DNA of 64,000 nt from a virus (IMGVR_UViG_3300033076_001232:1-64000), one strand, 5' to 3'. Counted from the stretch's first letter, positions 1 through 16,363 are shown. Numbers and translations are program-made. Notes: generated from the letters alone by a model not told the origin.

Positions 1-540
1 TCAGGAACAACAGGTTCATCAGGAACAAGTGGATCTAGTGGATCTTCAGGATCTAGCGGATCATCAGGAACAACAGGTTCATCAGGAACAAGTGGATCTA
101 GCGGATCTTCGGGATCTTCAGGATCTAGCGGTTCATCAGGAACAACAGGTTCATCAGGAACAAGTGGATCTAGTGGATCTTCAGGATCTAGCGGATCATC
201 AGGAACAACAGGATCTTCAGGCTCGTCAGGCTCTTCCGGATCACGAGGTTCTTCAGGATCTAGCGGATCATCAGGATCATCGGGAACAACAGGTGCTCCT
301 GGATCCTCAGGTTCATCAGGATCCAGTGGTTCTTCAGGAACAACAGGTTCTCCAGGTGCTCCTGGTTCTTCCGGATCAAGTGGTTCTTCTGGATCATCAG
401 GAACAACAGGATCTCCAGGTGCTCCTGGATCATCGGGTTCATCAGGATCTAGCGGATCCTCAGGTTCTTCTGGATCTAGTGGTTCTTCTGGAACAACAGG
501 TGCTCCTGGATCTTCAGGTTCATCGGGTACTTCTGGAGCT
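1..540 (+). repeat. Imperfect 9-bp-period coding tandem repeat (Gly every third codon) with higher-order units starting tcaggaacaacagg
   Basis: tcaggaacaacaggttcatcaggaacaagtggatctag recurs at 1, 64 and 136 and encodes (G-S/T-S/T)n. Confidence 0.95.
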
Positions 541-2667
541 AATCTTCAGGTTTTAGACGAGGGATCTTCTTTAACAACGGCTGCATCCTCTATGAATTTC
601 GTCGGTGCGGGGGTTACCGCTACCGTTGTTGGTACTGCAGTTACCGTCACTATCCCTGGAGGTGGTGGGGCTATACCTGGATCTAACAACCAAGTAATTA
701 CTTCCGATGGTGCTGGTGGAGCGGTAGCTGAATCCTTATTAACATTCAATGGAGCATTAGCTTCTCCTTATTTAAATGTAAATTCAGTAACTATTGGTAG
801 AGGAGGTAATAATGTTAATACCAATGTTTCGGTAGGTGATATAGCTTTCTCTGCAACTGCAAGTGGAACATATAATGTTGCAATAGGTAAGAATACATCG
901 TCATTAATTACCACCGGAAGTAATAATGTCTCTATCGGTACACAGGCTCTTGGTTCAGCAACGACAGGAAGTAATAATATAGCTTTAGGAAACAAAGCTC
1001 AGTCTAAAAACGATGTTTCGTCAGTAATTGCGATAGGTTATAACGCTTTGCAATGTAATACTCGCAATAGAACAATAGGTATTGGTAGTAACGTCCTTCA
1101 GGTAAATACTACAGGCTGTATTAATACTGGGTTAGGTCATTTAGCTCTGATCAATAATTCAACTGGATCTTATAATACATCTGTAGGTTACTCTTCCATG
1201 CAAAGACTCGTTTCTGGGTCTAAAAACACGGCTGTAGGAGCTGGATTTGCTTGTGGAGGGCCTAGTCCATCCTCTACATCTTGGTCACCTCTATACGGTA
1301 ATGTTTATGGAAGTCTAAACGTTGCTATCGGTACGAGTGCTTTGGCTAGAGGAACAAATGTGAATCAGCTTGTAGCAGTAGGGGTTGCAGCTCTACATGC
1401 AAATACAACGGGAACACAAAATACTGCTGTTGGTACATACGCTTTAGCTAAAAATACAATTGGAGTATGTAATATAGCTATTGGTAATAAAGCTTTAACC
1501 GGTAATGGTTATGGAGGATGTAATATCGCTATAGGATTTGAAACACTTTGTTATAATAATACTGGAGGGGGTAATATCAGTATCGGTGCTGCAAACATGG
1601 TCTCTAACACATACGGAAACCATAACGTTGCTTTAGGTAGATCTGCTTTATATTCTAACAATGCAGGATGTGGAAATATTGCGATAGGTAGAAGAACTTT
1701 AGCTTACAATACTACAGGTCTTTATAACGTTGCAATGGGAAGAGCTTCTTTATATTGCAATATCAGTGGATGTTACAACGTTGCCATAGGTAGATCAGCT
1801 CTATATGAGAATTATAATTCAAGCGGTAACGTTGCTATCGGTCACAGATCTTTGGTTTACAACAATACGGGAGGATATGAAGGTTCAAAAAATACAGCAG
1901 TTGGATCAAAATCTCTTTATAAAAACAATAGGGGTAGTTACAATACGGCATTGGGATATATGGCATTGTATAATAATACTACCCAAGGAAGTAACGTTGC
2001 AGTAGGTTATAAAGCTTTATTTAACTCGACCTCTAGAAGCAACGTTGCAATTGGTGCGAATGCGGCTAGTTCTCAAACTACCGGACAAAGCAACGTTGCA
2101 ATTGGAGAAAATGCTTTAGCCGCAAACGTTTATGGAAATGGATCAACCGCAGTTGGTAAAGCTGCGGGTAATAATTTTACCTATAACTATCAAATAGCGG
2201 TAGGATACAACGCGGTAACATCTAATGCCGCATATCACACTGTTTGGGGAAATGCAAATAACAACGTTTACAACTGTGTTTGGGCGGCTTGGACAAACGT
2301 TTCAGATTGTAGAGATAAAACTAATATAGAGCCTCTATCTAATAATTTAGGTCTTAATTTCATCAATAAGCTAACCCCTGTTTCCTTCAATTGGGATCAA
2401 AGACAGAGGTATGTTGATAAATGTGGATTTGAATATGGCCAAAAGGACGGAACATTAGTAAGCGAGCACAAAGAGTATGGACTTATAGCTCAGGATCTTA
2501 GAAAAGCACTAGATGAGCTAGGGGAACAATTCGATGCACTTAAGTATAATAGCACACAAGATGCTTATCGATTAACATATGAAGCTCTAATGGCACCTAT
2601 GATTAAGTCAATTCAGGAATTATCTGCTAGACTGGAGACATTAGAGAACACTTTAAACGGACAATAA
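1..2667 (+). CDS. Tail fibre/spike protein, 5'-truncated by the window: collagen-like G-X-Y (Ser/Thr) stalk, beta-roll repeats, C-terminal S74-type intramolecular chaperone
   Basis: Frame 1 is open from base 1 (SGTTGSSGTSGSSG...) into the 592..2667 ORF. It has many N-x-A-(I/V)-G-x-x-A-L repeats and a C-terminal SDCRDKTNIEPL...GLIAQDL...coiled coil typical of Peptidase_S74 chaperones. Confidence 0.85.
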   Translation, partial: SGTTGSSGTSGSSGSSGSSGSSGTTGSSGTSGSSGSSGSSGSSGSSGTTGSSGTSGSSGSSGSSGSSGTTGSSGSSGSSGSRGSSGSSGSSGSSGTTGAPGSSGSSGSSGSSGTTGSPGAPGSSGSSGSSGSSGTTGSPGAPGSSGSSGSSGSSGSSGSSGSSGTTGAPGSSGSSGTSGANLQVLDEGSSLTTAASSMNFVGAGVTATVVGTAVTVTIPGGGGAIPGSNNQVITSDGAGGAVAESLLTFNGALASPYLNVNSVTIGRGGNNVNTNVSVGDIAFSATASGTYNVAIGKNTSSLITTGSNNVSIGTQALGSATTGSNNIALGNKAQSKNDVSSVIAIGYNALQCNTRNRTIGIGSNVLQVNTTGCINTGLGHLALINNSTGSYNTSVGYSSMQRLVSGSKNTAVGAGFACGGPSPSSTSWSPLYGNVYGSLNVAIGTSALARGTNVNQLVAVGVAALHANTTGTQNTAVGTYALAKNTIGVCNIAIGNKALTGNGYGGCNIAIGFETLCYNNTGGGNISIGAANMVSNTYGNHNVALGRSALYSNNAGCGNIAIGRRTLAYNTTGLYNVAMGRASLYCNISGCYNVAIGRSALYENYNSSGNVAIGHRSLVYNNTGGYEGSKNTAVGSKSLYKNNRGSYNTALGYMALYNNTTQGSNVAVGYKALFNSTSRSNVAIGANAASSQTTGQSNVAIGENALAANVYGNGSTAVGKAAGNNFTYNYQIAVGYNAVTSNAAYHTVWGNANNNVYNCVWAAWTNVSDCRDKTNIEPLSNNLGLNFINKLTPVSFNWDQRQRYVDKCGFEYGQKDGTLVSEHKEYGLIAQDLRKALDELGEQFDALKYNSTQDAYRLTYEALMAPMIKSIQELSARLETLENTLNGQ

Positions 2668-3488
2668 TGCCAGTAAAAAAGATATTTTATAACTCCTCAC
2701 TTCCGAGGTCCGGATCCACATTACTACAAAATGTGATGATGCAGAATCCTGATATTTACTCAACACCAACCTCTGGAGTTTCAGAACTTCTTTTATCGTC
2801 AAGAAGTGTCTATTCTTCTAGTGATGCTTTTAAAGCACAGGATCCTGAAGAAATGAAAGAGGCTTTCAGAGGATTCTGTAAAGGGGGTATTTATGGTTAC
2901 TTTAATTCTATTACTGATAGACCATACGTATTTGAAAAAAGCAGATCTTGGCTGGGAAACAGATCCTTTGCAGATTTTTTTGAAGAGGATCCTAAGATAG
3001 TTGTAATGGTTAGAGATTTAAGAGGTGTATTCTCTTCGATGGAAAAGAATTTTAGAAAAAACCCACACAAAGATCCTATGATCGTTAATGGTGCTGAATT
3101 AAAAAACATGACAACCCCAGCAAGGGTAGATTATTTTTCGGTTTCCCCTCCAATCGGTCCTTCTTTAGAATGGCTTTTCGAGTCAATACATCAAGGATAT
3201 GATGAAAAAATCCACTTTATTAAATTTGAGAATTTTACGACCGATCCTGAATCTGAAATAAAGAAGCTTTACACCTATTTAGATATCCCTTATTTTAAAC
3301 ACGATTTTGACAACGTTCAGCAATTAACACACGAGAATGATGTCATTCACGGCATTTTCGGAGATCATAAAATATCTCCTAAAGTTAGGCCTGTTCCTGA
3401 CGATTATGTAAAAATACTAGGTAAATCAGAATCTGATAGATTAAGAAACCATTATGATTGGTTTTATAAAAAGTTCAATTATATATAA
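2667..3488 (+). CDS. PAPS-dependent sulfotransferase family protein
   Basis: 5'-PSB loop SSLPRSGSTLL, 3'-PB motif VMVRDLRGVFSS, and later IKFENF..DPESEIKKLYTYL. The start overlaps the fibre stop (TAATG). Confidence 0.85.
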   Translation: MPVKKIFYNSSLPRSGSTLLQNVMMQNPDIYSTPTSGVSELLLSSRSVYSSSDAFKAQDPEEMKEAFRGFCKGGIYGYFNSITDRPYVFEKSRSWLGNRSFADFFEEDPKIVVMVRDLRGVFSSMEKNFRKNPHKDPMIVNGAELKNMTTPARVDYFSVSPPIGPSLEWLFESIHQGYDEKIHFIKFENFTTDPESEIKKLYTYLDIPYFKHDFDNVQQLTHENDVIHGIFGDHKISPKVRPVPDDYVKILGKSESDRLRNHYDWFYKKFNYI

Positions 3489-3491
3489 GGT

Positions 3492-4082
3492 ATGCCAGAT
3501 CCTAGAGTAATATTACTGCAAGAAAAACTAACTAAGCTTTCTGAGATCTTAACAGATCCTACACCTCTTTACAAGGAGCACATCTTAAAAGATGACGAAA
3601 AAACTGTTAAGCCAAATCTTAAGGCTAAACACGTTAGTGAATTTACTGATGATATGGAGAGAAGATCTAAGTCCATCGAAATTTTAAAAGCGGAAATAGA
3701 AAGCGAGTCTTTAGAGGTTCCATTCGAGACCGTTCAGACTTTTAATAATGTCATAAAAGATAAGGAAGTTTTTCTGGAAAAGGGATCAACAAATTGGGAC
3801 AAGAGTCAATCTTTTAGTTCTCCTTCTTTTTATATAGCAAACAATACTTTATTTTTTCAATATAAGGACACATCTCCCATAGATTATATAGAAATAGTAG
3901 AGATCTCTCCCGATGGAAAATCAACAACCTCTTCTCAGGGGGGTACTATAGGAGATAATGAATTCATAAAAGTTCCGGTCATAATAGACTATTTGGAGAA
4001 GAATTCGCCCGGAACTAAATATATAGTTACTGTCGTTAATGGTAGCGGACAGAAAGGATTTTTTACTTACGTTTATAAATAA
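3492..4082 (+). CDS. Hypothetical protein
   Basis: 196-aa ORF packed tightly in the operon; no motif recognised. Confidence 0.7.
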   Translation: MPDPRVILLQEKLTKLSEILTDPTPLYKEHILKDDEKTVKPNLKAKHVSEFTDDMERRSKSIEILKAEIESESLEVPFETVQTFNNVIKDKEVFLEKGSTNWDKSQSFSSPSFYIANNTLFFQYKDTSPIDYIEIVEISPDGKSTTSSQGGTIGDNEFIKVPVIIDYLEKNSPGTKYIVTVVNGSGQKGFFTYVYK

Positions 4083-4088
4083 TATCAT

Positions 4089-4541
4089 ATGATCTACTGG
4101 TTTACTGGCCAACCAGGACACGGAAAAACAGTTCTTGCTAAAGAGCTAATAAAAATTCTAAATAACGGTGCGTTTCATATTGACGGAGATCATCTAAGAG
4201 GGATATTCGATAACAAGGATTATTCTGAATCAGGGAGAAGAAAAAACATAGATTTAGCTCAAAAGATCTCTCACTATTTAGAGAATCAAGGTAAGGATGT
4301 AGTGGTTTCTCTAGTTTCACCTTATAGAGATCAAAGAGATCATTTTAAGACTTCCATGGGTGATTCATTGGTTGAAATATACGTCCACACTACAGAGAAA
4401 AGAGGAAGAGAGAATTTCCACGTTCCCGACTATCAAGCTCCGATCGAAAACTTCATAGACATTGATACTACAATAGATAATCCAGAGGAAAGTATTATCA
4501 AAATAGTATCACATGAAAAATTATATCGCGAAAGCAGATAA
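4089..4541 (+). CDS. cysC: Adenylylsulfate (APS) kinase
   Basis: WFTGQPGHGKT P-loop, IDGDHLR, R..NI, VVSLVSPYRDQR, VEIYV and YQAP motifs of APS kinases. Confidence 0.88.
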   Translation: MIYWFTGQPGHGKTVLAKELIKILNNGAFHIDGDHLRGIFDNKDYSESGRRKNIDLAQKISHYLENQGKDVVVSLVSPYRDQRDHFKTSMGDSLVEIYVHTTEKRGRENFHVPDYQAPIENFIDIDTTIDNPEESIIKIVSHEKLYRESR

Positions 4542-4911
4542 AAAAACTTCTTCCAATAGACATCAATATTCAATGTTTGTTGGTAGATGGCAGCCTCTCC
4601 ATTCGGGACATCAATGGCTTTTTAATCAAGCATTAGAAGAGGGTAAAAACGTACTTATTTGTATAAGAGATGTTGAACCCGATGATAAAAATCCATTCTC
4701 TCCGGAACAAGTTAAAAATGATATAGAGAATTTTTATCAGGATTATGTACAATCAGGAAGAGTTAAGGTGATGATTATACCTGACATAGAATCTATAAAT
4801 TACGGTAGAGGTGTTGGTTACGATATCATCGAACACGTTCCGCCAGCGGAAATATCGGATATTTCTGCAACTAAGATAAGAGAGGGTTTAAAATCAGAGG
4901 GTAAACTATGA
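4513..4911 (+). CDS. HxGH nucleotidyltransferase (cytidylyltransferase-like fold), candidate minimal ATP sulfurylase
   Basis: GRWQPLHSGH, NPFS and ISATKIR motifs; overlaps cysC. Confidence 0.75.
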   Translation: MKNYIAKADKKTSSNRHQYSMFVGRWQPLHSGHQWLFNQALEEGKNVLICIRDVEPDDKNPFSPEQVKNDIENFYQDYVQSGRVKVMIIPDIESINYGRGVGYDIIEHVPPAEISDISATKIREGLKSEGKL

Positions 4912-5357
4912 GCAAGAAATTTAAGACATATCACATTAGATTTAACACGGTCTCTTCATCGGAGGACGATAGATGGAGATTGATAGAAGAAGGAGGAAAG
5001 GAGATTCTTGTTTCGGATGTAATAGTAAATGGACATTCATACACTACTAAAAACTGGATACCAGAGATTGAGGAATATAAGTGGCATATGTCATGTGATG
5101 GGTATTGTACAATCAAAGACAATGTTGCTAGAATAGAGACGATAAAAAACGAATCCGTTTTGACCCGGCATATACTAAAAACTGTTTCGTATAGAATAAT
5201 CGGAACCCTTACAACAGTAACTGTTGCATATTCTTTAGGTGTTCCTTTAGAAATATCATCTATGCTGGGCATGGGAGAGTTACTATTAAAACCAGTCATA
5301 TACTTCCTCCACGAAAGAATGTGGTATAAATGGATTAGAATCGGTATAAAGAAATAA
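4908..5357 (+). CDS. Protein with C-terminal DUF2061-like membrane domain
   Basis: RHILKTVSYRIIGT...KPVIYFLHERMW pattern with two hydrophobic helices. Confidence 0.7.
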   Translation: MSKKFKTYHIRFNTVSSSEDDRWRLIEEGGKEILVSDVIVNGHSYTTKNWIPEIEEYKWHMSCDGYCTIKDNVARIETIKNESVLTRHILKTVSYRIIGTLTTVTVAYSLGVPLEISSMLGMGELLLKPVIYFLHERMWYKWIRIGIKK

Positions 5358-5360
5358 TCT

Positions 5361-6239
5361 ATGGACAGTTATTTAGTGTGGCATATAGAGGGAGGTTTAG
5401 GTAAAAATGTTGCTGCAACGTCCCTAATAGAAACTCTTCACGGAAGGTACCCTGACAGAAAAATTATTATAGTGGCTTCTTATCCGGATGTATTCGTTAA
5501 CCATAAACTAATATATCGGGTTTATAGTGTTGGAAATACCCCATATTTCTATGATGACTATATTAGAGATAAGGATACCCTCGTTTTTAGACACGAAGCA
5601 TATTACGAGAGCAATCACATATCCAAAAGAAAACATATTATTGAGAGTTGGTGTAAATTAATGGATCTGGAGTATAAAAATCAGAGTCCAGTAATTAATT
5701 TCAATCTTGTCCAGCAGAGGAGTGCACAAAAATGGATTAGAGAAAATCCGATTCTGTTGATCCAAACTAACGGAGGACCTATGAATTCGGAAAATGCTTA
5801 TTCGTGGACCAGAGATATCCCATTTGATATTTCTTTGAAAATAGCGGACAAATTCAGAAGTACCCATCATATAATACAAGTATGCAAGCCCACTTCTAGA
5901 CAAATCCCAGGAGCGGAAATAATTAGTGACCCGTTATCTCCATTGGATCTTTTTTTATTGCTTGCTCTTTCTGAGAAAAGAGTTCTTATCGATTCGTGTC
6001 TCCAACATGCTGCGACAGCTTTAAATCTTAAATCTACTGTTTTATGGATAGGTACTTCTCCCGTTAATTTCGGGTATCCGTTTCATAAAAATATAATTGC
6101 AAACCCGCCAGAGACTCAACCTAAGCTAATAAATTCATATCTTTTTGATTATTCGTTCGATGGAATAGCTTACGAATGCCCATATTATAGTACGGATGAG
6201 ATTTTTAATGTAGATGACATAATAAAATCAATCGAATAG
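5361..6239 (+). CDS. Glycosyltransferase, GT9 (heptosyltransferase)-like GT-B fold
   Basis: N-terminal GGLGK..AA...L...YPDRKIIIV and C-terminal IDSCLQHAATALNLKSTVLW resemble GT9 motifs. Confidence 0.72.
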   Translation: MDSYLVWHIEGGLGKNVAATSLIETLHGRYPDRKIIIVASYPDVFVNHKLIYRVYSVGNTPYFYDDYIRDKDTLVFRHEAYYESNHISKRKHIIESWCKLMDLEYKNQSPVINFNLVQQRSAQKWIRENPILLIQTNGGPMNSENAYSWTRDIPFDISLKIADKFRSTHHIIQVCKPTSRQIPGAEIISDPLSPLDLFLLLALSEKRVLIDSCLQHAATALNLKSTVLWIGTSPVNFGYPFHKNIIANPPETQPKLINSYLFDYSFDGIAYECPYYSTDEIFNVDDIIKSIE

Positions 6240-6266
6240 AAACTTTAGCATACCAGGAATCTAAAA
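6239..6266 (+). promoter_or_regulatory. Class II (putative middle, ECF-type) promoter GAAAC-N18-TANAA
   Basis: GAAAC tttagcataccaggaatc TAAAA; the same motif lies upstream of seven other genes. Confidence 0.6.
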
Positions 6267-6279
6267 AAAATAAAAACAA

Positions 6280-6555
6280 ATGGAAGAATCAGTAAAATTA
6301 CCAGAAGAATTAGTACTAGAAGTTCAAGCTCTTAAGGATGAACTTATGGACAATGTTATTAAAGTTGGAAGATTAAGCGTACAGAAATCTTTTTACGAGA
6401 AAGATCTTGAAATGATTAATACACAGCTTTCTGAGCTTCATGACCAAGCAGCTCTAATTTACCAGAAGGAAGAGGATTTACAACAAAGAGTGATCTCCCA
6501 ATATGGCAATGGAAAATTAGATTTCGAAAGCGGAATCTTTACTAAAACGAAATAA
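6280..6555 (+). CDS. Small coiled-coil hypothetical protein
   Basis: 91-aa helical ORF with A-rich leader, ending YGNGKLDFESGIF. Confidence 0.75.
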   Translation: MEESVKLPEELVLEVQALKDELMDNVIKVGRLSVQKSFYEKDLEMINTQLSELHDQAALIYQKEEDLQQRVISQYGNGKLDFESGIFTKTK

Positions 6556-6613
6556 TCTAAACCTCCTAAACCTCATTCTGTAGATAGACTTGTTATTCCT
6601 TAATTTTTTTAAG

Positions 6614-6621
6614 GATATATA
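6614..6621 (+). promoter_or_regulatory. Class III (putative late) promoter GATATATA
   Basis: Octamer recurring shortly upstream of structural genes; analogous to the T4 late promoter TATAAATA. Confidence 0.7.
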
Positions 6622-6641
6622 CAAAAAGTACTTACTACAGA

Positions 6642-9131
6642 ATGAGTTTTTATCCGGAGAATAGATTTCCTAAAGACGGATCCCCTGTCAGAAACACAAA
6701 CGGGGAACAATATAATTTATCCAACCAGAGATATAATTATCATGATGGTCTACAGAATACTTCTAAAGTAAAGAATTCTTCCGTAGATAACATCTTTTCA
6801 ACTACTGGAGCAGCTGAAGCCAGATCTAAGCAGATAGGATGTGGTGGATATCACCAAGTTACCTTAGATGGTAAGGTATTCTATAAACCCTGCGAAACTG
6901 CAGAATATTACGATCTTAGAATAGAGCAATTAGACAGTGCTTTAAATTTCACTTATATAGGTAATTATCGGGTTTTAACCTGGGATAATCCTTTTGAATA
7001 CGTTACAGCATTTAAGGGATGGATTATAGATGCTTCACACAGTAATAATTCTGGATCGATATTAAATGCTAATGACATATCGATAGATTTCAGATACAGT
7101 ATCGACGGTAAAACTTGGTCACTCTGGACTAATGTTGGAACTGCATTAGGTGGATTAACTAATGAATATTCCGAGCTTTTTGATATTCCATTAAACCCTA
7201 ATAATAAATTCTACCCCGAATTTAGATTTACCTCGGTATTGGTAAATGATGACGGTACGATAGTTTATAACAGCGAGGAACCAATAGACCCCTCGATTGT
7301 AATAGTAAACTTTGAATTGGATTTAGAATATGAACCTACTCCAGAGGTTGTCATCTATAAGCCAGCTCCTATATGTACCGATGAGGTTTCCACTAGACCC
7401 ATACTTTTTTCTAATTGCAACTTTACGTTTAATCCATACGGAGTTAATAGAGCTCTTAATATGTACCAGGATCTAAGTTTAATGGTGAATAATGTATTCG
7501 GTCTAGATATCAATTACTATTCTGTTCAACCACAGGCTAGAGGTAAGGATGTGGTATTGAAAGAGTATACCATTTTTGATGTTGTTGATGAGAAATGTAT
7601 AAAGGTATTGGTTCCTCAGAATCAATTCCCGGACAATAAGATAAACTTCGATCCATTTGGTCTTCAATTTGAAGAGCCTTTTGAGATACAAATAGATAGG
7701 AGATACTTCGAATCTATCTTCGGTAGGGGATCACAGCCTCGAAAAAGAGATATCATATATTTTCCTTTAACCAATAGAATCTATCAGATTAATTCAACCT
7801 ATTTATTTAGGGATTTTATGAACGCTCCTGTTTACTTTAAAATAGAGCTCAAAAAATATACTCCTAGGTCTAATACGTATTTTCAGGATCCTGCTTACAA
7901 AGAAGAACTTGATGGTATATCACTTACCACTGCAGATCTATTTGGCGATGAAGTACAGGCAGAGGAACTTAAAAGCTCTAAACCCCAGCAGTACGCTACA
8001 ACTATAACGCAGTTAGATCAAGACCCTATAAGATCTTATGTCTATAAGGATCTTTCGATTATAGAATATGATCTGAATAATAACTGGACGATAGTTCTGA
8101 ATAATTATTATGATCTTTACCAAGCTTTTGCAGACGATTCTGAATTTGGATCAGATCCTAGAAGATATAGAAATGCAGTAAGATATAAAGTTCTTCCGAA
8201 ATCTGATTCGACTACCGAGTTAGCCTATAGTTGCTGGTTTAGTCTTAAGAATTTCTACGATAATCAACAGCTTGCAAGAAGATCTTATCCTGTAATGAAC
8301 CTGACACTAGAATCATCGACTAATGATCTTCTTTATTTTAACAGTTATCCAAGAAAACATAATCTACAGGTATGGGAATCATATAGTAGTAATCCGGAAG
8401 GATATGTTGCGATTAAAGGGGATAAGCTACACTCTGGAGGATATGAGGTAAGGGAGGTAATTGATGAATATAGATTTGCTGTCGATAATAACTCTGTAGA
8501 TTTTTCTGAAGGAACCATTATATGGAAAATGCAAAAAGCTCAAAGCAGAAATTTAATAAGTGGTCTCTATTTAGATGTTAATGAGGATATCAAAGGAATC
8601 CGAATAGATCTAATTCACTCTGGTGTAATGGATGAACTCACTAATAATTTCTTAGGTGAGGGAAGCATAGTAATAAGACTAAACGATACCATAATAAACT
8701 CACCTCTCCAATTTGTTCCTGAGTTTGGTGACTGGTATGGTGTAGTTGTTAATTTCTCTAATGTTTACAAACAAATCTCTGCAAATGTATGGGCAATGAC
8801 ATATGATCCTACCGATCCTAATGATCAGACAAGCAATTTAAAGAAGGTGCATAGTTCGGTAAGAATGTTCACAAACGATATTCTTTTCGATGCCCCTGCT
8901 GATATTGTTACCGACACATCTAGTCCTTTTTACGGAACTGATAATAACTCATATAAGATTTACACCGGACCTATTTGGCTTAGTAACGTCAGATTATTTA
9001 AAAATATGATAGATATAGATACTCAATCAACTGTATTAAATCAGAATATAGTGAGAGATGCACAATTAGCCCATATTATTGATAACGCAAAACCACTTCT
9101 GAATATTCCGAAGTTTGCAAGAAACAGATAA
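6642..9131 (+). CDS. Neck/head-closure protein (T4 gp14-like core) with large N- and C-terminal extra domains
   Basis: Central FGLDINYY...FDPFGLQFEEPFEIQIDRRYF...PRKRDIIYFPLTNRIYQI resembles gp14; lies before the terminase genes. Confidence 0.65.
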   Translation: MSFYPENRFPKDGSPVRNTNGEQYNLSNQRYNYHDGLQNTSKVKNSSVDNIFSTTGAAEARSKQIGCGGYHQVTLDGKVFYKPCETAEYYDLRIEQLDSALNFTYIGNYRVLTWDNPFEYVTAFKGWIIDASHSNNSGSILNANDISIDFRYSIDGKTWSLWTNVGTALGGLTNEYSELFDIPLNPNNKFYPEFRFTSVLVNDDGTIVYNSEEPIDPSIVIVNFELDLEYEPTPEVVIYKPAPICTDEVSTRPILFSNCNFTFNPYGVNRALNMYQDLSLMVNNVFGLDINYYSVQPQARGKDVVLKEYTIFDVVDEKCIKVLVPQNQFPDNKINFDPFGLQFEEPFEIQIDRRYFESIFGRGSQPRKRDIIYFPLTNRIYQINSTYLFRDFMNAPVYFKIELKKYTPRSNTYFQDPAYKEELDGISLTTADLFGDEVQAEELKSSKPQQYATTITQLDQDPIRSYVYKDLSIIEYDLNNNWTIVLNNYYDLYQAFADDSEFGSDPRRYRNAVRYKVLPKSDSTTELAYSCWFSLKNFYDNQQLARRSYPVMNLTLESSTNDLLYFNSYPRKHNLQVWESYSSNPEGYVAIKGDKLHSGGYEVREVIDEYRFAVDNNSVDFSEGTIIWKMQKAQSRNLISGLYLDVNEDIKGIRIDLIHSGVMDELTNNFLGEGSIVIRLNDTIINSPLQFVPEFGDWYGVVVNFSNVYKQISANVWAMTYDPTDPNDQTSNLKKVHSSVRMFTNDILFDAPADIVTDTSSPFYGTDNNSYKIYTGPIWLSNVRLFKNMIDIDTQSTVLNQNIVRDAQLAHIIDNAKPLLNIPKFARNR

Positions 9132-9134
9132 TTT

Positions 9135-9926
9135 ATGCCTAGAAGAAAACCGAAACCGGAGAAAGTTGTCGAGGAAAAAATAAAGGAAAGCCTTGACTCT
9201 ATAATTATGCAGGAAGCTCTGGAGAATATACTTCCTGATAGCGACGAGCTTCCCAGATTAAAAACAACGGATCTGATGGATTTTTCTGGAGAAAAATCTG
9301 CAGCATTGACCGATGCTAAAGCTTTGTTAGATACAATAACAAAATTCTACATGGATGAAACGAGCGTGAGCGAAGCATCCCATGTTGAATTTAAGAAGAA
9401 GATAGATGCGATGAATTTATCTTCTATGATGTTCCAATTAAAATCAGCCCAGCACGCGATAACTAAAATCCTTGAAGAAATAGATTTGGGAAATATGCAC
9501 CCAAGACTTTTTGAAGTTCTTGCACAACTACAATCACAGATTATGCAGATGCCTAAGGATTATCAGGCATATCTGGAAAAGATGGAGCAGAACTACAAGA
9601 AAACTAGAATTGAGGTTGATGAAAAGAAACACTCAAGAGGGATAGTTATAGACCAGGAAAGCGGAGACGGAAATGTTTATACACCTAACAGTTCACTCAC
9701 TTCAGATGGGGGATTGAAATCTAGAGGAACTAGAGGTATTATGGAGGGACTTAGAGATATTATAGGATCCGAGGTGGTTGACATAAAACCCGAGGTGATT
9801 GATCCCAATGCGGTAGTAAACGCTAGAGAGAAAAAAATAATAGATGCTCAGAATCCGAATAGAACAGACTCTGACGATAAGGTTGATGTGGATGATTTTT
9901 CAATAGAGGATGATATCTTAGAATAA
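9135..9926 (+). CDS. Terminase small subunit (gp16-like)
   Basis: Helical core with HPRLFEVLAQL (compare gp16 HPRAYEV); translationally coupled to the large subunit. Confidence 0.65.
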   Translation: MPRRKPKPEKVVEEKIKESLDSIIMQEALENILPDSDELPRLKTTDLMDFSGEKSAALTDAKALLDTITKFYMDETSVSEASHVEFKKKIDAMNLSSMMFQLKSAQHAITKILEEIDLGNMHPRLFEVLAQLQSQIMQMPKDYQAYLEKMEQNYKKTRIEVDEKKHSRGIVIDQESGDGNVYTPNSSLTSDGGLKSRGTRGIMEGLRDIIGSEVVDIKPEVIDPNAVVNAREKKIIDAQNPNRTDSDDKVDVDDFSIEDDILE

Positions 9927-11746
9927 TGGAAAATAGCATAGAGAAAATAGAACAGATAGAAACCTCCCATTGGTCAACTGCAAGGGTCGAAGAACTTCTG
10001 CGTAAAGTTGACGAGGAAGGATTGGATTATAAGTCTATAGATAACCCTTTCCATGATAATGATCCTGAATTAAAAAGAGCTAATGTCCTATGGGAGTACA
10101 CCAGAGAAGAAATTCTCGAAATGAAGAAATGTGCTGAGGATGTTACATATTTTGCTAAGTATTGTAAGGTAATGACTGATATGGGATTGGATTATATCCG
10201 ATTAAGAGATTATCAAGGATCGGTACTTAGAGAATATCAAAACAATAGATTCAACATATTTTTAGCACCCAGACAGGTTGGTAAATCAATTACGTCTTCT
10301 ATAATATTGGTTTGGTACTTGCTTTTCAATCACGATAAAAATGCGATGATCCTGGCGAACGTTGGTGACACTGCTGAAGAGTTAATGGACAAGATAAAGG
10401 CAATCATCAAAGGGCTTCCTTTTTATATGAAACCCGGTATGGTTGTTAATAATGTGATGACCATGAGGTTTGACAATGGATGTAGAGTATTAGCTAAAAC
10501 TACCACTAAAACTTCAGGTATTGGTTTTACTATACATTTTCTATACATGGACGAGTTTGCTCACATTAATGCAAACTTTATTGAGGCTTTCTTTAGATCA
10601 ACATATCCAACGGTATCTTCGTCCAAGGTTTCCAGAATTATTATTACCTCCACACCAAACGGGATGAATAAATTCTATGAAATTTATCAAGGTGCTCTAA
10701 ACGGTGAAAACAGCTTCAATCCAATAAGAGTAGATTGGTGGCAGGTTCCTGGAAGGGATGACGATTGGAAAAAAAGAGAGATTGGTAACTTAGGTAGTGA
10801 AGAACTTTTTAATCAGGAATACGGTAATCAATTTTTAAGCTCGTCAAGTCTTCTACTTGGCTCAGATGAGCTTAGAAAAATAAGAAATAATGAGGTTGAA
10901 TATCAGTGGAGAGAACTTTCAAATCTTCATTATGCTGATGTTAATTATGAGAATCTTATATGGCATCCCAAGTTTGATCTCGATAAAGCTAATCAGCCGG
11001 GTAAAAAATTCATCCTTTCAGTAGATCTTAGCAGCGGTGCCAAAGGGGATTTTACAGTTATAAATATTTTTAAAGTTACCCCTCTTCCAAAATATGTCAT
11101 AGAAAAAATGGAGGAGTATGAGGACGAATCTGATTTCTTTGGTCTTGTTCAGGTTGGGGTTTTTCGTGATAATGAGATAAAGCTTGAGGATTTCACAAAA
11201 CTCCTACAGATCCTATGTTCTGAAATATTTGAGGTTGATAGGGTTAAAATAGCTCTCGAGATGAACTATAAAGGTGAGCTAGTTTATGATAAACTTTCAC
11301 AGAGGGATGATTTCTATGATGAGATGTTTTTGTTTACTAAACACACAGAAGCAGCCAGAGTTTTAAAACCTGGTATTAAGTACAACGAGAAGAATAAAAT
11401 GAAGTACTGTGAACTTCTCAGAAGCTTAATAAGAAGGGATAGGGTTTTAGTTAATGAAAAGAAATGGACTATACCGGAGCTTTTTACATTTGGTCTTAAT
11501 AATTCAGGTACATATTCAAGTCAGAGCGGACATGATGATGTTGCAATGACACTGGTCAATCTCCCTGGGCTGTTTGATGGTTATGATTTTAATCAAATAG
11601 TAGGTGAGGTATTTGACGAATTGGAAGAGAATTCCTACAAAGATATGATCATTAAGAAACTCGAGTCCGGATTTAATGGAGAAGATGAAAACGGATTCTC
11701 TACCAAAGATGGAAAGAGCTACGGAGATTTTAACAATCTGTTATAA
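9926..11746 (+). CDS. terL: Terminase large subunit (T4 gp17-like)
   Basis: LRDYQ, Walker A PRQVGKS, Walker B YMDEFAH, TSTPNG, nuclease SVDLS and GHDD motifs. Confidence 0.96.
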   Translation: MENSIEKIEQIETSHWSTARVEELLRKVDEEGLDYKSIDNPFHDNDPELKRANVLWEYTREEILEMKKCAEDVTYFAKYCKVMTDMGLDYIRLRDYQGSVLREYQNNRFNIFLAPRQVGKSITSSIILVWYLLFNHDKNAMILANVGDTAEELMDKIKAIIKGLPFYMKPGMVVNNVMTMRFDNGCRVLAKTTTKTSGIGFTIHFLYMDEFAHINANFIEAFFRSTYPTVSSSKVSRIIITSTPNGMNKFYEIYQGALNGENSFNPIRVDWWQVPGRDDDWKKREIGNLGSEELFNQEYGNQFLSSSSLLLGSDELRKIRNNEVEYQWRELSNLHYADVNYENLIWHPKFDLDKANQPGKKFILSVDLSSGAKGDFTVINIFKVTPLPKYVIEKMEEYEDESDFFGLVQVGVFRDNEIKLEDFTKLLQILCSEIFEVDRVKIALEMNYKGELVYDKLSQRDDFYDEMFLFTKHTEAARVLKPGIKYNEKNKMKYCELLRSLIRRDRVLVNEKKWTIPELFTFGLNNSGTYSSQSGHDDVAMTLVNLPGLFDGYDFNQIVGEVFDELEENSYKDMIIKKLESGFNGEDENGFSTKDGKSYGDFNNLL

Positions 11747-14800: not shown

Positions 14801-15178
14801 TTCGGTAACCAAACTGCTTATCAGCAGGTTAATTCCGCATTCAACTTGGTTCACGTAAGAGACTTATTAATTAGCGTAGAGAATGACGTACAAGAAATTC
14901 TTGCTAACTACTTATTTGACTTTAACGAGGATTCAATTCGTCTAGAAATTAAAACATTAGTAGATAATTACTTAGATGGAGTTAGAGCCGGTGGAGGTAT
15001 TTACGCATACCAAACAATCATGGACGCTTCTAACAACACTCCAGCAATTATCGATATGAATATGGGTATTATCGATGTTATCATCGAACCAGCAAGAGGA
15101 ATTCAGAAGTTCATTAACAGAATTACAGTTACTAGAACAGGTGGAATCGCTTCTGGAGGATTTATCCAATTCGTATAA
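11828..15178 (+). CDS. Contractile tail sheath protein (gp18-like) with large insertion
   Basis: SGVYTLEFD..., GFSNKGPFNTP, VPPAAYV, AGQKRG, GINPI, FGNQT, VRDLL, FDFN motifs. Confidence 0.93.
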   Translation: MANKVKIDYSQFRASGVYTLEFDASQNVILTSQTIRLVVGFSNKGPFNTPVYIPDVTTLISIFGDIDRSLENKGSFFQRSILTCLNAGPVFALNLLRLNDDLESANPDEVDYQAYSLDTEEYNGVVTSKLYSSYYNKERFWFADPNYFLATLSVADQGKLFSLVNLGKSPMSIITRKSTDSSKPLKGYDIFAIDWYGADNVPSFMHPYDYMSDYFIDVIAVYGDWTNYQALSIDPKWSTYFTENGFIKSRIDNFLAEPDVSIVTSVTGCIIPDFVDLNGVNQYIQTLINNSTPSTGLFCAIDEQSFDDICANGSKIDLVGNHLIDELTGDSDLPSPRINFLSYDQVLVADYLYSQNVVGVTGATGFVSATGATVYTAGAKVGTLYTLTGVTGATAGIVYQSFAAYDPASFDGGLHYLQTSGTGGTAGYIQTAAQKNELKTFLTVNSSNDQKFILGVVSGYTGGLTGALVNQFSEGDLVKLKVTGTKDVSGELRIFFTHPLDTGFYRSQGITVTPTYNLTSYNTGASGSNQPFYTNAYQFGNSDYVDIVSTATPGGVTGPNAPLGVSNVLVGYNASELYQDNKYANIADGDIIWLNDTGSSVQYLGFEETVDRDQFNFVNTRAFTNVSLADTTITNITGFGTAYASNNVGLPVSTQAIDIVSQEGSINEFVDCTKIDVTTFLVTQDVNGNAPFSVGDLVVSTDLDICDPATGNRQNRLAKITTVSATTTAGTYRVTSARPVLYYTAGSGVRVQKFKSIAQFTRSFDFTYLSGFTMTEWHRPNGSDARISEILDVMYNTNIAKTLAAKDVISYRYIVDTFSGQILPNTKYQLSRLAKLRQQALAIINAPSMAQFRASTDPRFTDAPTAANPYPRLNTAYIADGGNLSLNPTYTFSLPTEDDGAKYAAFYSPYITVRESNRNVEVPPAAYVSNNFLRKFANGEPYAIIAGQKRGVISGGNIVGVEYDFTEEDRGNLEPFGINPIIKRRGIGVVIFGNQTAYQQVNSAFNLVHVRDLLISVENDVQEILANYLFDFNEDSIRLEIKTLVDNYLDGVRAGGGIYAYQTIMDASNNTPAIIDMNMGIIDVIIEPARGIQKFINRITVTRTGGIASGGFIQFV

Positions 15179-15200
15179 TTTACGAGTTTTAAGAAGGGCA

Positions 15201-15208
15201 GATAAATA
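15201..15208 (+). promoter_or_regulatory. Class III late promoter variant GATAAATA
   Basis: Immediately upstream of tail tube 1. Confidence 0.6.
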
Positions 15209-15217
15209 TAACTAATT

Positions 15218-15772
15218 ATGGCAGGATTATCTCACTTTTCGAATTCATTATCAGCAGTAAACAAGTTTGAACCTGTTTACCTGAATCAATTTGAAGTTAC
15301 TATCATCCCACCAGCAGCTGTTGCTGGCGGTGAGATACTACTTCAACACGTTTCCAAAGTAAGTGGACTTTCTTTGGATAAAAACCCGGGATTGGCAACT
15401 CAGAAATTTAAGTTTGCTAAGAGGAACTACGCAGGTGCTAAACCTGACCAGACATTTATGGATTTAAGTGTCAGCTTCTCCGTAAACTTAAATGATGACA
15501 ATTCGATGTATGTGTTTAAAACACTAAGACAGTGGTCGGATCTGATCTACAATCCTCTTACTGGTGCAATGGGTCTTAAAAATGATTACGTTGGAACTAT
15601 CGTAGTCAACATCTTCAATAAACAAGGTGACGTCTTTAGAAGAATCACTTGTAAAGATTGTTTCCTTACTAAGCCAATTTCACCAATGAACCTAAACTAC
15701 ACTTCAACAGATCTTTACAAGATTGATGATATGGTATGGGCGGTTGATTATTGGGAGGATTTGTTCCTATAA
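15218..15772 (+). CDS. Tail tube protein, copy 1 (gp19-like)
   Basis: Follows the sheath; NQFEV, YAG, LRQWSDLIYNPLTG, DYW pattern. Confidence 0.85.
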   Translation: MAGLSHFSNSLSAVNKFEPVYLNQFEVTIIPPAAVAGGEILLQHVSKVSGLSLDKNPGLATQKFKFAKRNYAGAKPDQTFMDLSVSFSVNLNDDNSMYVFKTLRQWSDLIYNPLTGAMGLKNDYVGTIVVNIFNKQGDVFRRITCKDCFLTKPISPMNLNYTSTDLYKIDDMVWAVDYWEDLFL

Positions 15773-15787
15773 AAAACACTTAAATAA

Positions 15788-16363
15788 ATGGCAGGATTAC
15801 CACACTTTACTAATTCTAAAGCAGCTATAAACAATTATGAACCGGTTTATCTAAACCAGTTTGAGGTTATTATTAATCCTCCTGCTGGAATAGTTGATGC
15901 TGCTACTACTTTCAATGGAGAAGGTATATTATCTCAGCAAGTTAAGTCTATAACTGGTCTTGCGGTAGATATAGCACCTGCAGCTACAGTAGAACAAAAC
16001 TATAAGTTCGCAACTAGAAGATACGCTGGTGGCGAACCATCTACCAGTGATATGACTTTATCTATGGAATTTGAGGTCAACTTAAATGATCAAAATTCCA
16101 TGACAGTTTACAAGGTTCTTAGACAGTGGTCAGATTTAATCTACAATCCTCTAACAGGTGCGATGGGTATCAAATCAGATTATGTCGGATCTATGGTAAT
16201 TCAGGTATTTAATAAGAGAGGTGACGTATTTAGAAGAATCAGAATACCTTCTTGCTTCTTAAGTGAAGCTATAAATCCAATGGAACTAGATTATGAATCT
16301 GCATCGATATACAGTCTTAGCGCTAGTTGGATATGTGATTATTGGGAAGATATCTTCTTATAA
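15788..16363 (+). CDS. Tail tube protein, copy 2 (paralog)
   Basis: Shares EPVYLNQFEV, LRQWSDLIYNPLTGAMG, GDVFRRI and DYWED with copy 1. Confidence 0.85.
   Translation: MAGLPHFTNSKAAINNYEPVYLNQFEVIINPPAGIVDAATTFNGEGILSQQVKSITGLAVDIAPAATVEQNYKFATRRYAGGEPSTSDMTLSMEFEVNLNDQNSMTVYKVLRQWSDLIYNPLTGAMGIKSDYVGSMVIQVFNKRGDVFRRIRIPSCFLSEAINPMELDYESASIYSLSASWICDYWEDIFL

Follow-up and report, generated by a model that had tools for sequence, protein, structure and literature searches.

A tail fibre gene followed by a predicted sulfation cassette in a 250-kb phage, with a candidate miniature ATP sulfurylase

The first 6,239 nucleotides of a 64,000-nucleotide stretch of viral DNA (IMGVR_UViG_3300033076_001232:1-64000; the whole stretch is hereafter called the window), which comprises bases 1 onward of a 250,353-bp IMG/VR viral contig with a CheckV completeness of 92%, carry the end of a tail fibre gene followed by genes for a sulfotransferase (ST), a protein without family assignment, an adenosine 5'-phosphosulfate (APS) kinase-like protein, an HxGH nucleotidyltransferase (NTase), a DUF2061 membrane protein, and a glycosyltransferase (GT). 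This layout had been described in an initial annotation of the DNA and is confirmed by the open reading frames (ORFs; Table 1). The best overall explanation, to which a probability of about 0.6 is given, is that the region forms the 3' part of a late structural operon, in which the fibre gene is followed by a mobile five-gene cassette of two modules that would make and use 3'-phosphoadenosine 5'-phosphosulfate (PAPS). In the first module, the NTase, apparently NadM-derived, would adenylylate sulfate to APS, the trimmed APS kinase would phosphorylate APS to PAPS, and the DUF2061 protein would assist in this sulfate activation, perhaps via sulfate entry or membrane tethering; in the second module, the ST and the GT, which has a GT9 fold, would use PAPS and a nucleotide sugar to place a sulfated sugar on a cytoplasm-accessible acceptor. 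The enzymatic activities, the timing of expression, and the acceptor are thus predictions read from gene content, motifs, folds, synteny, and co-occurrence statistics. A cassette that joins PAPS synthesis to sulfotransfer is known in kind; what it probably contains is a new enzyme class.

The case for the first module comes from the cellular relatives of the NTase, of which at least 511, at 47–70% identity, were found in a scan of one genome per prokaryotic species; the carriers include Marinimicrobia, marine Bacteroidota, SAR11, Marine Group III and Thaumarchaeota archaea, Nitrospiraceae, Omnitrophota, and Candidate Phyla Radiation (CPR) bacteria. A screen with hidden Markov models (HMMs) places an APS-kinase gene within 1.5 kb of the NTase gene in 65 of 80 cellular loci. 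In five genomes checked by HMM, the sole APS kinase, which is canonical (226–240 bits) in two of them, lies about 100 bp upstream of the sole NTase, and these five genomes, including chromosomes of 4.5 Mb and about 1 Mb, hold no Sat and no real CysD or CysH. Among 43 NTase-positive genomes, Sat occurs in 6, CysD in 3, and neither of them in 34, whereas Sat or CysD, often fused to the kinase, is present in 30 of 33 NTase-negative, APS-kinase-positive comparison genomes (9/43 against 30/33; Fisher p = 5e-10). The comparison genomes came from a set of 51 drawn at random from one carrier's phylum, in which the NTase was found only in the two already known carriers. The cellular neighbours of the NTase include Sulfotransfer_5, Wzz, Wza, Wzi, GT4, epimerases, and UDP-glucose dehydrogenase, with the PAPS reductase CysH beside it in Nitrospiraceae and a Cys/Met pyridoxal-phosphate (PLP) enzyme in SAR11. 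Coupling to APS kinase, together with presence where any other sulfurylase is absent, supports the view that the NTase works like Sat, not that it is a member of the Sat family. PAPS synthesis by the kinase, the NTase, and the DUF2061 protein is the best reading of these contexts, which support a self-contained supply of the predicted donor well, with the NTase probably acting as a non-Sat (non-orthologous) mini ATP sulfurylase.

The NTase had been likened in the initial annotation to Sat-type sulfurylases, and here only half of the claim stood: its role in APS supply is backed by the comparative genomics above, whereas the protein itself is a NadM-like mini enzyme. It is placed outside the Sat family because it scores below the PF01747 threshold and has a quarter of the size of Sat; its 112 residues do not accommodate the catalytic domain of about 200 aa and the PUA-like N-domain of the Sat type. 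Pfam recognizes it as CTP_transf_like (27.6 bits), and databases label its family merely "cytidyltransferase-like." It shares the GRxQPxHxGH and ISxTxxR motifs with NadM and the archaeal nicotinamide mononucleotide adenylyltransferases (NMNATs; TIGR01527; PDB 1ej2, 1f9a, 2qjo), but it reaches merely 22–28 bits against the NadM families (TIGR01527 and NF002243), whose cut-offs are 127–181, and the segment between its third strand and the ISxT motif, the region that NMNATs use for their second substrate, is halved (23 residues against 47). By score and by this region it falls outside the NadM-type enzymes, and its loci in this analysis stand always in sulfate contexts and never in an NAD context. 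Relative to PAPS synthases and Sat-CysC proteins (human PAPSS1, 1x6v; Aquifex aeolicus Sat/APS kinase, 2gks), the phage pair likewise consists of an APS kinase and an adenylyltransferase of the HxGH superfamily, adjoins PAPS users, and in some phages is fused with the kinase N-terminal; unlike those proteins, the phage NTase has 112 rather than about 390 residues, carries neither the PUA-like domain nor the QTRNP and GRDHAG motifs, and remains below the Pfam cut-off, while the phage kinase has a trimmed lid and the DUF2061 membrane protein is a third fixed partner. The true start of the NTase is probably ATG 4573 rather than ATG 4513, which would give 132 aa and a 29-nt overlap with the kinase, because the homologues are mostly 108–112 aa long and begin with MFVGRWQP. 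In a separate part of the contig, outside the window, an open frame of about 670 aa (112980-114989) has a weak match to the mini-NTase profile (E 2.7e-5) and may encode a conventional NadM-type NMNAT fusion.

If the NTase activates sulfate, it would fill the missing first step of sulfation in streamlined marine microbes that have CysC and sulfotransferases and lack Sat and CysDN, it would offer a 112-residue catalyst for PAPS regeneration, and it would mean that large phages carry a complete sulfation pathway, not a helper gene for sulfur assimilation. A more far-reaching proposal, which is speculative and on balance doubtful, combines two claims: that the NTase is a third, miniature class of ATP sulfurylase that stands in for Sat and CysDN next to CysC in numerous marine bacteria and archaea, and that large aquatic phages captured it, together with the trimmed APS kinase and DUF2061, in order to sulfate a glycan of their own virions. 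A literature search of incomplete coverage returned no description of the NTase family, of a DUF2061 function, or of a phage PAPS cassette.

The partners of the NTase fit the predicted pathway. The kinase matches Pfam APS_kinase (PF01583) with 62.5 bits against a cut-off of 21.1 and stays below the NCBIfam APS kinase threshold (TIGR00455; 67 against 138.7). All of its best PDB matches and its NCBIfam matches are APS kinases. It contains the APS-kinase motifs, namely the P-loop GxPGxGK, DGDxxR, the aromatic residue, R..N, and SP, and residues G7, P9, G12, K13, D32, D34, R37, Y45, R50, N53, and P78 are invariant in 46 homologues. The canonical cysC of the huge phage LR756500 was considered as the same module and rejected on account of its different gene context. 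The ST exceeds the Pfam thresholds for both Sulfotransfer_3 (PF13469; 52.3 bits) and Sulfotransfer_1 (PF00685; 41.9 bits), and its PAPS-binding motifs PRxGST and RDxR...S are invariant across 39 homologues (R14, G16, S17, and T18 in the 5'-phosphosulfate-binding (5'-PSB) loop; R116, D117, R119, and S124 in the 3'-phosphate-binding (3'-PB) motif), so that it carries both family matches and both motifs of a PAPS-dependent sulfotransferase. Its nearest solved structures are the tyrosylprotein sulfotransferases TPST1/2 (E 1.7e-9), chiefly via the cofactor region; no transmembrane segment was seen in the ST, which is taken as cytoplasmic. The GT has no Pfam match at E <= 0.01, GT9 (PF01075) included, and so stands outside the GT9 sequence family, whereas its predicted model (mean predicted local distance difference test score, pLDDT, 91.8) has a GT-B fold closest to GT9 structures in Foldseek (3tov, 4.5e-11; WaaF 1psw, 7.6e-10; WaaC; TibC). 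It thus resembles the GT9 heptosyltransferases WaaC and WaaF and the protein O-heptosyltransferase TibC in fold and differs from them in sequence (11–14% identity); PF01075 is matched by two other upstream ORFs in related loci. The conclusion that the genes form a donor-synthesis, glycosyltransfer, and sulfotransfer cassette, not an aid to sulfur assimilation, agrees with the initial annotation and is argued for by the invariant ST motifs, by the comparative genomics, and by the lack of any CysH in the whole 250-kb record, which bears out the earlier statement that no PAPS reductase is seen in the window; no CysQ was found in the phage record.

Across viral loci, the cassette splits into its two modules. 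Scans of IMG/VR returned 197 ST relatives and 386 kinase relatives, from which 158 loci were kept and analysed. The kinase, NTase, and DUF2061 genes (the triad) occur together in about 120 viral loci, and in 43 viral loci the triad stands without an ST or GT of the window's type within 8 kb; the ST and the GT move together, and module order differs between loci. Phages of Xylella, Xanthomonas, and Stenotrophomonas have the kinase and the NTase fused into a protein of about 248 aa (phrog_10255, annotated "kinase"; for example L002, Xylella phage Salvo, record 15167-15913), with the kinase first, as in animal PAPS synthase; this fusion sits in an early, nucleotide-metabolism region, and no sulfotransferase gene is close to it. 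A gene for a HAD-like phosphatase of about 113 aa (e.g., L155:8411-8815; weak Pfam and NCBIfam HAD matches), which is absent from the window's phage, lies between the kinase and the NTase in 15 of 29 triad-only loci, and its product could be a phosphatase that removes the 3'-phosphate of 3'-phosphoadenosine 5'-phosphate (PAP) or a pyrophosphatase that pulls the sulfurylase reaction. Six contigs of Bacteroidota or Ignavibacteria metagenome-assembled genomes (MAGs; L175, L185, L198, L165, L195, and L210) carry a phage-type cassette with DUF2061, three of them also with the ST-GT pair; they probably derive from phages, either integrated into Bacteroidota genomes or assigned to them in binning, and give a weak hint of host range.

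The DUF2061 assignment of the membrane protein is secure by score (PF09834; 53.1 bits against a cut-off of 23.1; 4e-14), and the protein is strongly conserved in phages, its N-terminal domain included. A homologue search with the phage protein returned close phage relatives alone, and a PDB profile search gave no match. In Bacteroidia, DUF2061 is fused N-terminally to a canonical APS kinase or stands beside CysC, CysD, CysN, or CysH in four of nine loci, one CysC fusion being counted (L332:1477-2328, L328, L327, and L324), and these links therefore place a domain of unknown function in a sulfate-activation context.

Several observations weigh against the proposed pathway. By sequence and fold, the NTase is nearest to NadM and archaeal NMN adenylyltransferases, with ATP sulfurylases tied within 1 Z unit, and its score against the Sat-type PF01747 is 20.5 bits, below the cut-off of 24.3, with the HxGH region alone aligned. 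The kinase is devoid of most of the lid and reaches 62 bits, as against 187–240 for canonical CysC. Many of the cellular carriers are incomplete single-amplified genomes (SAGs) or MAGs, the genomes compared are phylogenetically non-independent, and the adjacent kinase is often missing in those NTase-positive genomes that do have Sat (six) or CysD (three). The 43 triad-only loci show no clear ST within 8 kb, with a weak Sulfotransfer_2-like family there; a sulfotransferase motif screen near these loci found none, and Pfam scans of the whole records gave sub-threshold matches only. The family in question (alignment A8) consists of an ORF of about 243 aa at L124:13815-14543 and 7 related ORFs, situated about 4 kb 3' of the triad in some triad-only phages; it has the motifs LPRxxST and KRxxxER and sub-threshold matches to Sulfotransfer_2 and heparan sulfate 2-O-sulfotransferase, and it may represent a second, divergent family of phage sulfotransferases.

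The resemblance to NadM leads to the alternative that the kinase and the NTase make not PAPS but an NAD-related compound, as a NadR-like kinase with an NMNAT would, or an ADP- or CDP-sugar for the GT, in which case the HAD phosphatase of the relatives would perform a GmhB-like step. Besides the similarity of the NTase to NadM NMNATs, the HAD-like gene between kinase and NTase recalls the kinase-phosphatase-adenylyltransferase logic of ADP-heptose synthesis, and a GT9 fold is at hand. The kinase, however, retains the APS-kinase-specific DGDxxR, aromatic, R..N, and SP features and finds APS kinases throughout its PDB and NCBIfam matches; the cellular partner of the NTase is often a canonical CysC, Sat and CysD are depleted in NTase carriers, and the links to CysH, sulfotransferases, and DUF2061-CysC point to sulfate. 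Moreover, the second-substrate region has half the NMNAT length, and the triad is found without any GT9. On this evidence, NAD salvage and ADP-heptose synthesis were both judged unlikely, and the alternative as a whole is improbable next to PAPS synthesis.

The acceptor of the sulfated sugar is a separate matter, for which the fibre gene has to be considered. Its frame is open from base 1 of the contig, so the 5' end of the gene is missing and 888 residues are visible; the opposite contig end was checked and holds no continuation. The visible part begins with a stalk of 180 residues of G-X-Y repeats, in which Ser or Thr occupies 107 of 120 X/Y positions, Pro 6, and acidic residues none, and ends in a C-terminal S74 chaperone, as in tail fibres that carry this chaperone after a trimeric stalk; from its sequence the (G-S/T-S/T)n stalk is read as a collagen-type triple-helix spacer. 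Elsewhere in the contig, at 97084-101987 and outside the window, three tandem ORFs of about 520–560 aa each bear a short conventional collagen-like segment of mixed residues (GPxGxxG type), contrasting with the Ser/Thr-only repeat of the fibre. Glycosaminoglycan (GAG) attachment sites in proteoglycans consist of Ser-Gly within an acidic context and are served by xylosyltransferase and linker enzymes. The proteoglycan analogy drawn in the initial annotation found no support, since the stalk is an ordinary GXY collagen repeat devoid of the acidic context of such sites and since fibres of this kind and the cassette are largely independent.

This independence was visible from both sides. Among 73 distinct ST loci with readable upstream sequence, a large upstream ORF is present in 34, of which 19 belong to the tailspike family of the window, while others are helicases; where the upstream ORF is small, it encodes, for example, an FkbM methyltransferase, a DUF7936 protein, or a GIY-YIG nuclease. 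GXY repeats occur in six of the large upstream ORFs (6 of the 73 loci), and complete fibres of the same family beside cassettes are free of them. Seen from the fibre side, GXY fibres that are S/T-rich and free of Pro turn up frequently in viral contigs and have a cassette gene within 10 kb in 5 of 79 loci; where the fibre C-terminus is of a related type and the downstream sequence extends for at least 3 kb, such a gene is present in 3 of 42 loci. The co-occurrence that the initial annotation had put forward as its check is thus not found: the cassette occurs mostly without GXY fibres, such fibres mostly without the cassette, and the claimed coupling to a Ser/Thr-Gly fibre did not hold. The adjacency of cassette and fibre is clade-specific synteny.

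That the cassette decorates the Ser/Thr-Gly repeat with a sulfated glycan, functionally coupled to the fibre in a proteoglycan-like way, is accordingly a remote prospect, although it has points in its favour. The fibre and ST genes overlap at stop and start and seem to share a late transcription unit, and in the closest clade it is this fibre family that precedes the cassette (19 of the 34 large upstream ORFs; about 23 loci BLAST-positive). Collagen helices poor in Pro can, moreover, gain stability from O-glycosylated Thr, as they do in the cuticle collagen of Riftia. The GT9-fold matches include the protein O-heptosyltransferase TibC and the nearest solved ST relatives are protein tyrosine sulfotransferases, but these likenesses reside in folds and cofactor motifs common to lipid and sugar enzymes; the counts of 6/73, 5/79, and 3/42, the absence of GXY from the complete family fibres near cassettes, a repeat with no acidic residue, and the fact that no xylosyltransferase-type enzyme was seen speak against it. 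A further point in its favour, and the best precedent for any virion acceptor, is the glycosylation of mycobacteriophage virions (Freeman 2023, as cited in PMC12619734), in which, as the citing account has it, GTs encoded beside structural genes modify Ser/Thr-rich virion parts; as far as that account goes, the mycobacteriophages differ in having no sulfation or donor-synthesis module and in their GT families.

Alternatively, the cassette may remodel a host envelope glycan, such as the lipopolysaccharide (LPS) core, an O-unit, or a capsule precursor, during infection and leave the virion unmodified, for example hiding receptors that would otherwise trap progeny on cell debris. This is a possible though not a likely course. 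It would agree with the cellular kinase-NTase pairs in capsule and exopolysaccharide (EPS) loci alongside Wzz, Wza, Wzi, GT4, and sulfotransferases, with the characterised GT9 enzymes, which are mostly LPS-core heptosyltransferases, with the membrane protein within the triad, and with the variable position of the cassette, which sometimes lies beside non-structural genes. However, late co-transcription with a fibre would seem unusual for host-surface conversion by a lytic phage, and no flippase, Wzy, or lipid-carrier enzyme was seen in the cassette. Within the preferred reading of a PAPS-making and PAPS-using cassette, a virion structural protein, for instance of the adjacent fibre family, is the leading acceptor at somewhat short of even odds, a host envelope glycan precursor is a tentative choice ranking just behind it, and something else takes the smaller remaining share. 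The virion acceptor is kept alive because of the translational abutment, the late operon, the TibC and TPST resemblances, and the mycobacteriophage precedent, none of which singles out the GSS repeat. If the sulfated glycan is on the virion, it would represent a novel type of particle decoration; if it belongs to the host, it would represent a novel type of surface conversion by a lytic phage.

The nearest known counterparts of the second module are the hypervariable glycan-modification islands by the tail-fibre genes of marine T4-like cyanophages (S-SKS1, S-SRM01, S-SCSM1, and AG-345-L05), which contain a homologous ST at 25–29% identity and differ in that the triad was not seen in the stretches examined. 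In Marine virus AG-345-L05 (a T4-like cyanophage; L164, locus 4223-11570), the ST-GT pair comes after a large LamG-domain structural protein, in a run of the LamG protein, a 2-oxoglutarate (2OG)-Fe(II) oxygenase, the ST, a 111-aa ORF, the GT (41% identity), and a NodU/CmcH-type carbamoyltransferase, the oxygenase and the carbamoyltransferase being additions relative to the window; this run appears to be a related island for glycan tailoring, with no PAPS module.

The placement of the cassette in a late operon derives from the surrounding window. Downstream of the cassette lie genes for a neck-like protein, the large terminase, the sheath, the portal, and the major capsid protein. The octamer GATATATA occurs in 13 copies across 6614-57418 of the window, exclusively on the + strand, a number reached in 2 of 100 shuffles, and most copies stand 20–55 nt 5' of structural genes (neck, sheath, portal, prohead protease, and others), which is consistent with a late-promoter element. 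A search for GATATATA within 1-6613 found no copy, and the fibre and the cassette therefore look like a single late transcription unit, the late timing being suggested by these motifs; a terminator search found none convincing. The genes are tightly packed, with the fibre stop and the ST start codon overlapping by one base and the other boundaries between ST and GT visible from the coordinates in Table 1. The closest portal is that of the 462-kb uncultured huge phage LR756500 (44% identity), with Lak phages also among the relatives, and the phage appears to be a 250-kb myovirus and distant kin of Lak and other huge phages. On portal affinity, it is placed close to the aquatic "moraphages," which were described recently and are predicted to infect Bacteroidota (PMC12619734). 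Searched as DNA against cultured phages, the cassette gave no match.

Table 1. Features of the fibre and cassette region, with positions counted from the first base of the window
Feature	Position	Strand	Matches and remarks
Tail fibre/tailspike gene, 5'-truncated	1..2667	+	Collagen, Peptidase_S74, phrog_4636
Collagen-type (G-S/T-S/T)n stalk	fibre residues 2-181		Pfam Collagen 8e-26, 90 bits
GxxNxAxG beta-helical repeats (~570 residues)	fibre residues ~190-760		phage tailspike type; phrog_4636 tail spike 3e-94
Peptidase_S74 intramolecular chaperone	fibre residues 768-841		3e-11, 43.7 bits against a cut-off of 22
Predicted PAPS-dependent sulfotransferase, 273 aa	2667..3488	+	Sulfotransfer_3, Sulfotransfer_1
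196-aa protein without family assignment	3492..4082	+	
Trimmed APS-kinase-like P-loop kinase, 150 aa, shortened lid	4089..4541	+	Pfam APS_kinase
NadM-like HxGH NTase, candidate mini ATP sulfurylase, 112 aa	4573..4911	+	alternative ATG 4513
149-aa protein: N-terminal soluble domain (1-85) and C-terminal DUF2061 two-helix membrane domain	4908..5357	+	
GT-B glycosyltransferase, GT9 (heptosyltransferase-family) fold, 292 aa	5361..6239	+	predicted model
91-aa helical protein	6280..6555	+	after the cassette in 16 related loci
GATATATA late-promoter-like motif, first copy in the window	6614..6621	+	
Neck-like gene	start 6642		21 nt after the first GATATATA motif

Of the smaller features, the 196-aa protein between the ST and the kinase has no family in Pfam, PHROG, or NCBIfam scans, gave no usable match in the Atlas, and is present in the four closest related loci only. 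At the far edge of the contig, the last 120 or so bases contain a GGATTCGAACC-type T-arm on the reverse strand, which suggests a tRNA gene at that end.

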